Shown: in pieces, positions 23,836-24,090 of the stretch | Position numbering within the stretch: the first letter of the stretch is position 1 | How the letters are laid out: every line of letters begins with the position of its first letter | Assembly: GCF_014280195.1 (NCBI RefSeq) | Contig: NZ_CP047960.1 | Span: 390,001-422,000 of the forward strand | From: Synechococcus sp. A15-24 | GTDB taxonomy: Bacteria > Cyanobacteriota > Cyanobacteriia > PCC-6307 > Cyanobiaceae | Reading direction: 5' to 3' | Length of the DNA: 32,000 bases | The notes under the pieces: model-generated | The model's database searches: none | Told to the model about the DNA's origin: nothing | Seen by the model: only the letters and a program-made list of their open reading frames with translations | Position numbers and translations under genes: made by a program

Positions 23836-24090
23836 CCGCGAGAAGAACGCTGTTCTCCCCGATCGATGCGACCATCGGTACAACCAAGTTCGCCGCGCTA
23901 TTGAACTTCTCAGCGAACGCACCAGGTCTTTTCAGGATTCCATTGCACAGAACGGTGTCTCCCACGATCGCTCACGCAGGAGACGTGTTCTGTCAGCTCT
24001 CGGATCGCTCTTCCGAGGCCGTCGCGTGTGGATGAACTCCCCATGTCCGCGCAAAGCAAATATGGAGCCGAGCCGCGTGTTCGGCAACAG
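23836..24090 (+). other. conserved non-coding structured element, copy 2
   Basis: Same blocks as 20560-20815: AGAAC-GCT-GTTCT (23844-23856) and the interrupted 13-bp stem (23947-23993). Confidence 0.45.

Follow-up and report, generated by a model that had tools for sequence, protein, structure and literature searches.

A conserved element in Synechococcus sp. A15-24 is a copy of the structured non-coding RNA Cyano-2

What kind of sequence is conserved between two places of one cyanobacterial genome at the level of the nucleotides and not of a protein? The question is raised by positions 23836-24090 of a 32,000-nucleotide (nt) stretch of Synechococcus sp. A15-24 (contig NZ_CP047960.1 of assembly GCF_014280195.1, positions 390,001 to 422,000 of the forward strand; hereafter “the window”). 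For this element an original prediction, made from the letters alone, had offered two answers: a novel structured non-coding RNA (ncRNA) convergent to upstream plus-strand genes, or clustered operator or recombination sites for a dimeric DNA-binding protein. We find that the element is a copy of Cyano-2, a structured ncRNA catalogued since 2010. The first answer was thus right as to the kind of molecule and its strand and wrong as to its novelty, and the identity in Rfam keeps the element from being reported as a novel RNA.

The covariance-model search that had been suggested was run against Rfam 15 and returned two full-length matches to RF01702 (Cyano-2; 204 model positions, gathering score 40 bits), each lying on the minus strand and spanning model positions 1-204. 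Copy A lies at 20548-20745 (194.7 bits, E 1e-49), and copy B, the flagged element, at 23820-24023 (167.4 bits, E 4e-42). Cyano-2 was described from 57 sequences of marine Synechococcus and ocean metagenomes as an RNA with GCGA in its terminal loops, a highly conserved bulge and an internal region without conserved structure; its upstream 1 kb is usually free of annotated genes, and it was scored as a genuine RNA that is not cis-regulatory (Weinberg et al, 2010; PMC2864571). In the Rfam alignment, both copies show this architecture over the full model, with helices P1 and P2, a linker of ~65-80 nt and then P3 with the conserved bulge. GCGA is present in the P1 loop (AGAGCGA in copy A, AAGAGCGA in copy B) as well as in the P2 loop, which reads UGAGCGAU in both. 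The setting also fits, as the window holds a cyanobacterial transfer-messenger RNA (tmRNA) and a Cyano-1 element, and only open reading frames (ORFs) of at most 78 amino acids (aa) lie upstream of the two copies. The genome matches to Cyano-2 that we confirmed were all from Synechococcus, and the metagenome matches were marine. Beyond the 2010 paper, the literature library searched gave nothing relevant on the function of Cyano-2 or RF01702.

The two copies are 3.3 kb apart and belong to different subfamilies. Given its lower score and different 3' tail, copy B had been considered a decaying paralog; this was dropped, as copy B falls in the GACGGCC...CCUCAGUAGCCCCC subfamily, which is separate and well populated in the published seed. 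Seed sequences from one scaffold of the Global Ocean Sampling (GOS) survey are near-identical to copy A, and at least five Cyano-2 copies each are found in the seed for WH8102 and CC9605. The metagenome contigs L152, L173 and L183 are ~99% identical to the copy A unit, so that public ocean metagenomes include the strain of the window or a close relative; L152 and L183 each carry two Cyano-2 copies ~2.7-3.3 kb apart.

The three hairpins that had been listed for the element are all present, and each is a helix of the Rfam model. The CTCGG-N9-CCGAG repeat (23999-24017) is part of P1 (23994-24021, minus strand, as are all parts of both copies), which has the outer helix CGGC/GCUG, the inner helix CUCGG/CCGAG and the loop AAGAGCGAU. 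The 13-base-pair (bp) interrupted stem ACAGAAC..GTCTCC[loop]GGAGAC..GTTCTGT is P2 (23947-23993), whose outer helix ACAGAAC/GUUCUGU is followed by the inner helix GUCUCCUGCG/CGUGGGAGAC and continues inward to the 8-nt loop given above. The apical helix of P3 (23826-23880), an arm of three stacked helices with a 7-nt bulge, corresponds to GAGAAC-GCT-GTTCTC (about 23840-23860). The variable insert, seen to form a different 6-bp hairpin in each copy, is the Cyano-2 linker; in copy B (23881-23946) it has the conserved CUGAAAAG and GGUGC motifs and the copy-specific hairpin GUUCGC/GCGAAC. Other details of that description need correction. AGAAC/GTTCT occurs as two inverted pairs, not as three palindromes, and in P2 the AGAAC arms are limited to the subfamily of copy B, the other subfamilies having GGCAGAA/UUUCUGC in the seed and in 42 homologs. 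The HIP1 octamer GCGATCGC, around which the interrupted stem was said to lie, has its only exact occurrence in the window within copy A (20686-20693), whereas copy B, for which it was claimed, has only ACGATCGC. Chance alone would give 0.84 such sites, so that this genome is not a HIP1-rich one, and HIP1 was rejected as the reason for the GCGATCGC loop. Finally, a conserved element does occupy 23836-24090, but conservation extends well past both ends.

To assess the structure in relatives, we collected homologs by a pattern inside P3 from six Synechococcus genome loci and from 66 marine contigs of a metagenome scan. The genome pattern was loose and yielded mostly chance matches in G+C-rich genomes, with Cyano-2 in only six of 120 loci, all Synechococcus; the metagenome pattern excluded the subfamily of copy B. 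A 480-nt profile (160 nt upstream, the model and 120 nt downstream) matched most contigs almost end to end and gave 46 distinct full units, which are 50-68% identical to copy A; the structure statistics refer to 42 of them. These homologs revealed compensatory changes. With the Rfam helices and two new ones, 92.8% of the cells are paired, a share that drops to 41-49% once the 3' partners are shifted by 1-3 columns. Changes on both sides were found at 21 pairs, among them six of ten pairs in P1 and all seven of the inner helix of P2, and the observed values were reached by none of 500 shuffles. G-U pairs account for 215 cells, and at two pairs every sequence has G-U. G-U is a mismatch in duplex DNA as well as on the other strand, where only 83.7% of cells pair, and these pairs fix the strand as minus. 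Applied to the 42 homologs, RNAalifold recovered P1, P2 and the apical part of P3, predicted nothing in the linker and differed from Rfam in pairing the 7-nt bulge in place of the middle P3 helix. As single sequences, copy A has a folding z-score of -4.4, and copy B reaches -123 kcal/mol on the minus strand versus -110 kcal/mol on the plus strand.

Coding had been judged unlikely, and the alignments agree with this view. The ORFs 20478..20957 and 23753..24109 on the plus strand do cross copies A and B, respectively. Indels of 1 and 2 nt around TCTTTTCAGG and a further 1-nt indel after GTGGA(A/T)GAA, all seen in the pairwise alignment, shift the frame between the copies, and no minus-strand ORF is found at homologous positions in both. 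Across the 46 units no reading frame is open throughout on either strand (the minimum open length is 2-22 codons), which supports a structured RNA and disfavours a protein-coding gene; the conservation of the unit shows no three-base period. The element is therefore non-coding, and compensatory changes in relatives preserve P1, P2 and P3.

The conserved unit is about twice as long as the Rfam model. Conservation in the 46-unit alignment runs from ~150 nt upstream of the model to ~55-65 nt downstream, giving a unit of ~400-450 nt that takes in a promoter region, a 5' hairpin (P0) and a 3' domain. No consensus structure emerges from the 170 aligned upstream columns, as would suit DNA signals better than RNA. 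These columns contain the block TTCAYGGAAGAWWT and a dyad GTA-N8-TAC with variable spacer, which is exact in 23 of the 46 units at one aligned column and reads GTA-N8-[A/G]AC in 13 more. In copy A this upstream DNA (20840-20881) comprises the block TTCACGGAAGATTTT (20840-20854) and an exact dyad (20868-20881), the only such site in the window; its counterpart in copy B (24116-24158) comprises the block TTCATGGGAGATTTT (24116-24130) and the imperfect dyad GTG-N8-TAC (24145-24158).

Between the dyad and P1, a consensus scan found a sigma-70-like promoter in copy A, TTGCCA-17-CATATT, with the -35 hexamer at 20805-20810 and the -10 hexamer at 20782-20787. The aligned site in copy B (24059-24087) has TTGCCG (24082-24087), a 17-nt spacer and CATATT (24059-24064), which puts the predicted transcription starts near 20775 and 24052. 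A -10-like hexamer (CATATT, CATCAT, TATCAA or CATAGT) is present at the same aligned place in all subfamilies, with a weaker -35-like hexamer mostly 17 nt (16-18) upstream of it and with P1 starting 33-43 nt downstream. A sigma-70-type promoter 33-43 nt upstream of P1 would thus drive each copy separately. A hairpin between the -10 box and P1 is possible in nearly all units, although its sequence is unrelated between subfamilies, and the transcript would begin with this P0. In the window's own copies P0 is weak (-5.1 and -7.1 kcal/mol, z +0.8 and +0.3); it lies at 24024-24050 in copy B, between the predicted start and P1, and within 20746-20810, together with the predicted promoter, in copy A.

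Downstream of the model, the subfamilies related to copy A have CACAUC...UUCGG...GUUGGAAGUCAGCC...CCGAUAGAAGGGGCUG in common, in which RNAalifold pairs CCCC/GGGG (P4) and UCGG/CCGA (P5) with 94-96% of the helices paired. In copy A these two helices enclose the conserved GCUGCAGAGAGUCAGCC at 20494-20547. At pair 233-324, 25 sequences have CG and 16 have UA, and at pair 252-313, 26 have GC and 14 have CG; such switches between the main clades are suggestive, not proof, of a conserved 3' domain. In these subfamilies the transcript would run ~55 nt past the Rfam model into the P4/P5 domain, which would give copy A a predicted RNA of ~285 nt, from about 20775 to 20494. The 3' tail of copy B (23755-23819) is unlike this domain and forms a CCCUCC...GCC-GUAA-GGC...GGAGGG hairpin; copy B is the sole member of its subfamily with flanks in the collected set.

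The dyad invites a comparison with NtcA, the nitrogen regulator of cyanobacteria. In canonical NtcA-activated promoters, the consensus GTAN8TAC is centred at -41.5 (PMC3898017), and a TAN3T box follows about 22 nt downstream. The site itself is exact in copy A and in half of the units, whereas a TAN3T box 19-24 nt after the dyad was found in none of the 46, and for this absence a canonical (class II) NtcA promoter was rejected. From the end of the dyad to the proximal -10 box there are 77-82 nt (67 in one subfamily), so that the centre of the dyad falls at about -87 to -101, and the nearest good -10 box starts 67-86 nt after it. A CRP-family regulator acting from this upstream position is a reasonable reading: the dyad, ~90-100 nt upstream of the predicted start, is likely to be the site of such a protein, for which NtcA would be the obvious candidate, tying expression to nitrogen status. 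The NtcA-dependent small RNAs (sRNAs) NsiR4 and NsrR1 likewise have a GTA-N8-TAC dyad upstream of a stand-alone RNA gene. Cyano-2 differs from them in the position of the dyad relative to the predicted start and in the missing TAN3T box, and it exceeds these base-pairing sRNAs by far in size and degree of structure.

How would such an RNA act? Neighbouring protein families recur across related loci at changing distance and orientation, none of them as a constant partner. With no constant neighbour and a downstream gene that is often convergent, Cyano-2 looks like a self-contained RNA gene and not like a leader or an antisense partner. Very probably, then, each copy is a Cyano-2 gene read from the minus strand, presumably as its own transcription unit and yielding an RNA of several domains. 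As to its mode of action, we lean slightly towards a trans-acting, compactly folded RNA that would work through its invariant loops and bulge, either by binding protein or by a tertiary fold.

One feature of the fold might connect these parts. Read as a reverse complement, the P3 bulge 5'-AUCGCUC-3' matches two loops exactly, GAGCGAU in P2 and GAGCGA in P1, and this complementarity is not a by-product of HIP1, because HIP1 is not enriched in the window. Among the seed variants, three keep a wobble pair in the loop-bulge pairing and two or three break it; the 42 homologs have the bulge fixed by the search pattern. Apart from three C-to-U variants, AUCGCUC is found in all seed sequences, and also in these 42 homologs. 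Copy B instead has AUCGAUC (23861-23867), substituted at a base that is invariant in the seed and in the homologs, a C-to-A change that would break the loop-bulge contact and could be a disabling mutation or a sequencing variant. In the most detailed picture, the Rfam model is the core only of an RNA of ~285 nt that has five helical domains (P0 to P5), is held together across its two halves by bulge-loop kissing and is under CRP-family (possibly NtcA) control at the dyad. We put this picture forward as a speculation that is rather unlikely to hold in full.

Several observations weigh against these readings. The substitution just described affects an otherwise invariant bulge, and copy B folds only marginally better than shuffled sequences (z -1.6). 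The homolog set is uninformative on variation in P3, since the search pattern lay inside it, and the covariation in P4/P5 amounts to about two or three evolutionary events between two clades. At the upstream end, most subfamilies have a weak -35 hexamer (3-4 of 6 matches), the TAN3T box is missing, and the dyad is absent in one subfamily besides being imperfect in copy B. A terminator scan found no minus-strand intrinsic terminator after either copy, and GGGGCUG followed by U5-7 occurs in only four of the 46 units, which leaves the 3' end undefined. Neither a transcript nor an RNA end, 5' or 3', came to light for any copy of Cyano-2, and among the transcription starts listed in the in-situ table for CC9605 none lies at the five seed copies of this strain.

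Of the alternatives, a cis-acting leader fares best, the element being a riboswitch-like device of a downstream minus-strand gene with alternative 3' hairpins (GGCUG/CAGCC versus CAGCCCC/GGGGCUG plus a U run) as expression platform. The 3' region can indeed form such mutually exclusive hairpins, the four units with a U run would match the second of them, and one clade has a same-direction small ORF about 100-170 nt downstream. However, the downstream gene differs by subfamily and is often convergent, as with the DUF3104 and DUF3303 genes that end at the 3' end of the RNA. GGCUG/CAGCC is not retained in the CC9605-like clade, where the G-to-A change in GGAGCUG is compensated in P4 and not in the terminator-like hairpin. 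In CC9605, transcription of the small same-direction gene behind one copy starts at a mapped site of its own (1429506), and the describers of Cyano-2 had scored it as not cis-regulatory. A leader for a neighbouring gene is improbable, less likely than a trans-acting RNA.

The convergent genes suggest a second alternative, in which the RNA would be an antisense or 3'-overlap regulator of a DUF3104-type gene, like convergent type I toxin-antitoxin pairs. In several related loci (L066, L138, L172 and L180) a DUF3104 gene ends at or within ~100 nt of the 3' domain of the RNA, and in the window a 37-nt remnant of the 3' end of such a gene directly adjoins the 3' domain of copy A. Yet DUF3104 is a neighbour in only a minority of the units (11-23 of about 60), and copy B is 780 nt away from its DUF3104 gene, with another ORF, Cyano-1 and two terminators in between. 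In addition, the 82-aa DUF3104 protein is not a small hydrophobic toxin, and no conserved part of the RNA overlaps the gene. We consider this relationship quite improbable.

Less probable still is an element acting as DNA, either through the operator or recombination sites proposed for a dimeric protein or, in the manner of an integron attC, as a folded single strand. It would account for the inverted repeats in the arms and for the occurrence of several copies in variable regions rich in small ORFs, and the separate upstream dyad does resemble a protein site. What the homologs keep in the arms, however, is the pairing and not the sequence, with many double changes such as CG to UA or GC to AU, and this argues against duplex-DNA operators at the AGAAC-N3-GTTCT sites, as do the restriction of AGAAC in P2 to one subfamily, the G-U cells with their two invariant G-U pairs and the unequal pairing of the two strands. 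No recombinase or integrase was found among the ten larger ORFs of the window scanned against Pfam, and a unit of ~400 nt with promoter-like features is unlike attC. A protein-coding gene or pseudogene, whether as the plus-strand ORFs or as a minus-strand ORF from the ATG/ACG-GAA-GAT block, is hardly credible: long ORFs do cross both copies and a minus-strand frame (MGDF.../MEDF...) is open in copy B and in L066, but the frame is shifted between the copies, none stays open in all 46 units, the would-be start is ACG in most of them, and copy A has a stop two codons upstream.

A known RNA with similar features is Yfr103, a very abundant multi-copy ncRNA of marine picocyanobacteria that is also found in Prochlorococcus (Hou et al, 2016; PMC5069720). 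It is strongly structured and 290-328 nt long, has seven paralogs in CC9605 and shows a conserved, imperfect palindrome upstream of its promoter (PMC5069720). The two are not the same RNA: in CC9605 the seven Yfr103 positions (520334, 523173, 745088, 946997, 1038850, 1437033 and 2396025) do not coincide with the five Cyano-2 seed positions (534921, 913565, 1290872, 1429118 and 1587566; NC_007516.1). Cyano-1 (RF01701) shares its host organisms and its original survey (2010) with Cyano-2, and the two co-occur, but it is a short motif of 69 nt with a strong terminator next to it, and its distance and orientation to Cyano-2 vary. In the window it lies at 23321-23382 on the plus strand (42.2 bits, threshold 41) and points toward the 3' end of copy B; together with its terminator (23379-23405 plus a T run) it spans 23312-23412. 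Cyano-1-like elements were seen in 11 related loci, in no fixed arrangement to Cyano-2. Whole Cyano-2 units gave no BLAST match to phage genomes, and Cyano-2 was absent from five viral contigs that matched the search pattern.

Both copies are embedded in small-ORF stretches with mosaic repeats (19964-21308 versus 22921-24865). Upstream of each, on the same strand, lies a gene for a C-x2-C protein of 55-58 aa (21016-21183 and 24362-24538, minus strand); the two proteins (...PPDPHACEHCGPILRK...) are 86% identical paralogs without a Pfam family. The DNA around these genes is 87% identical (20955-21165 versus 24301-24511) and thus more alike than the whole Cyano-2 units, and homologs of the protein are found in about eight related loci at varying positions. 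A 61-nt repeat (21248-21308 and 24805-24865, 84% identical) with the inverted repeat TGTGT..CTTTGTCACACA lies upstream of both Cyano-2 cassettes. On the plus strand, the window has a DUF3104 gene (22788-23036), a paralogous fragment of it (19966-20076) and the 37-nt 3'-end remnant (20457-20493). This remnant supplies the stop codon of a DUF3303 gene (20118-20462, plus strand) that converges on the 3' end of copy A, and its position next to copy A looks like a trace of cassette-like recombination.

On a larger scale, the tmRNA gene (9003-9290, plus strand) is followed by ~18 kb (9300-27000) with almost no ORF above 140 aa, a 394-aa AAA_25 ATPase (9942-11126) being the exception. Possibly this stretch is an integrated island; a search with 13-mers found the tmRNA 3' end, a repeat of which would mark the boundary, nowhere else in the window. 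It also holds a direct repeat of ~380 nt (11222-11601 and 13373-13753, 2.15 kb apart), 94% identical over 300 nt with an 81-nt extension at 78%, and a 70-nt unit in two tandem copies that are 76% identical (15459-15598).

Cyano-2 is a multi-copy RNA in the genomes of one of the ocean's main primary producers. The anatomy added here, comprising predicted ends, a 5' hairpin, a 3' domain, the upstream dyad and the complementarity of loop and bulge, is a tentative, incremental refinement of this known motif. The kissing contact, if true, would account for the constant association of two distant structured regions. If the more detailed picture were to hold, Cyano-2 would be a nutrient-responsive family of compact RNAs, a ribonucleoprotein scaffold or a catalytic fold, maintained in multiple copies in variable regions rich in small ORFs.

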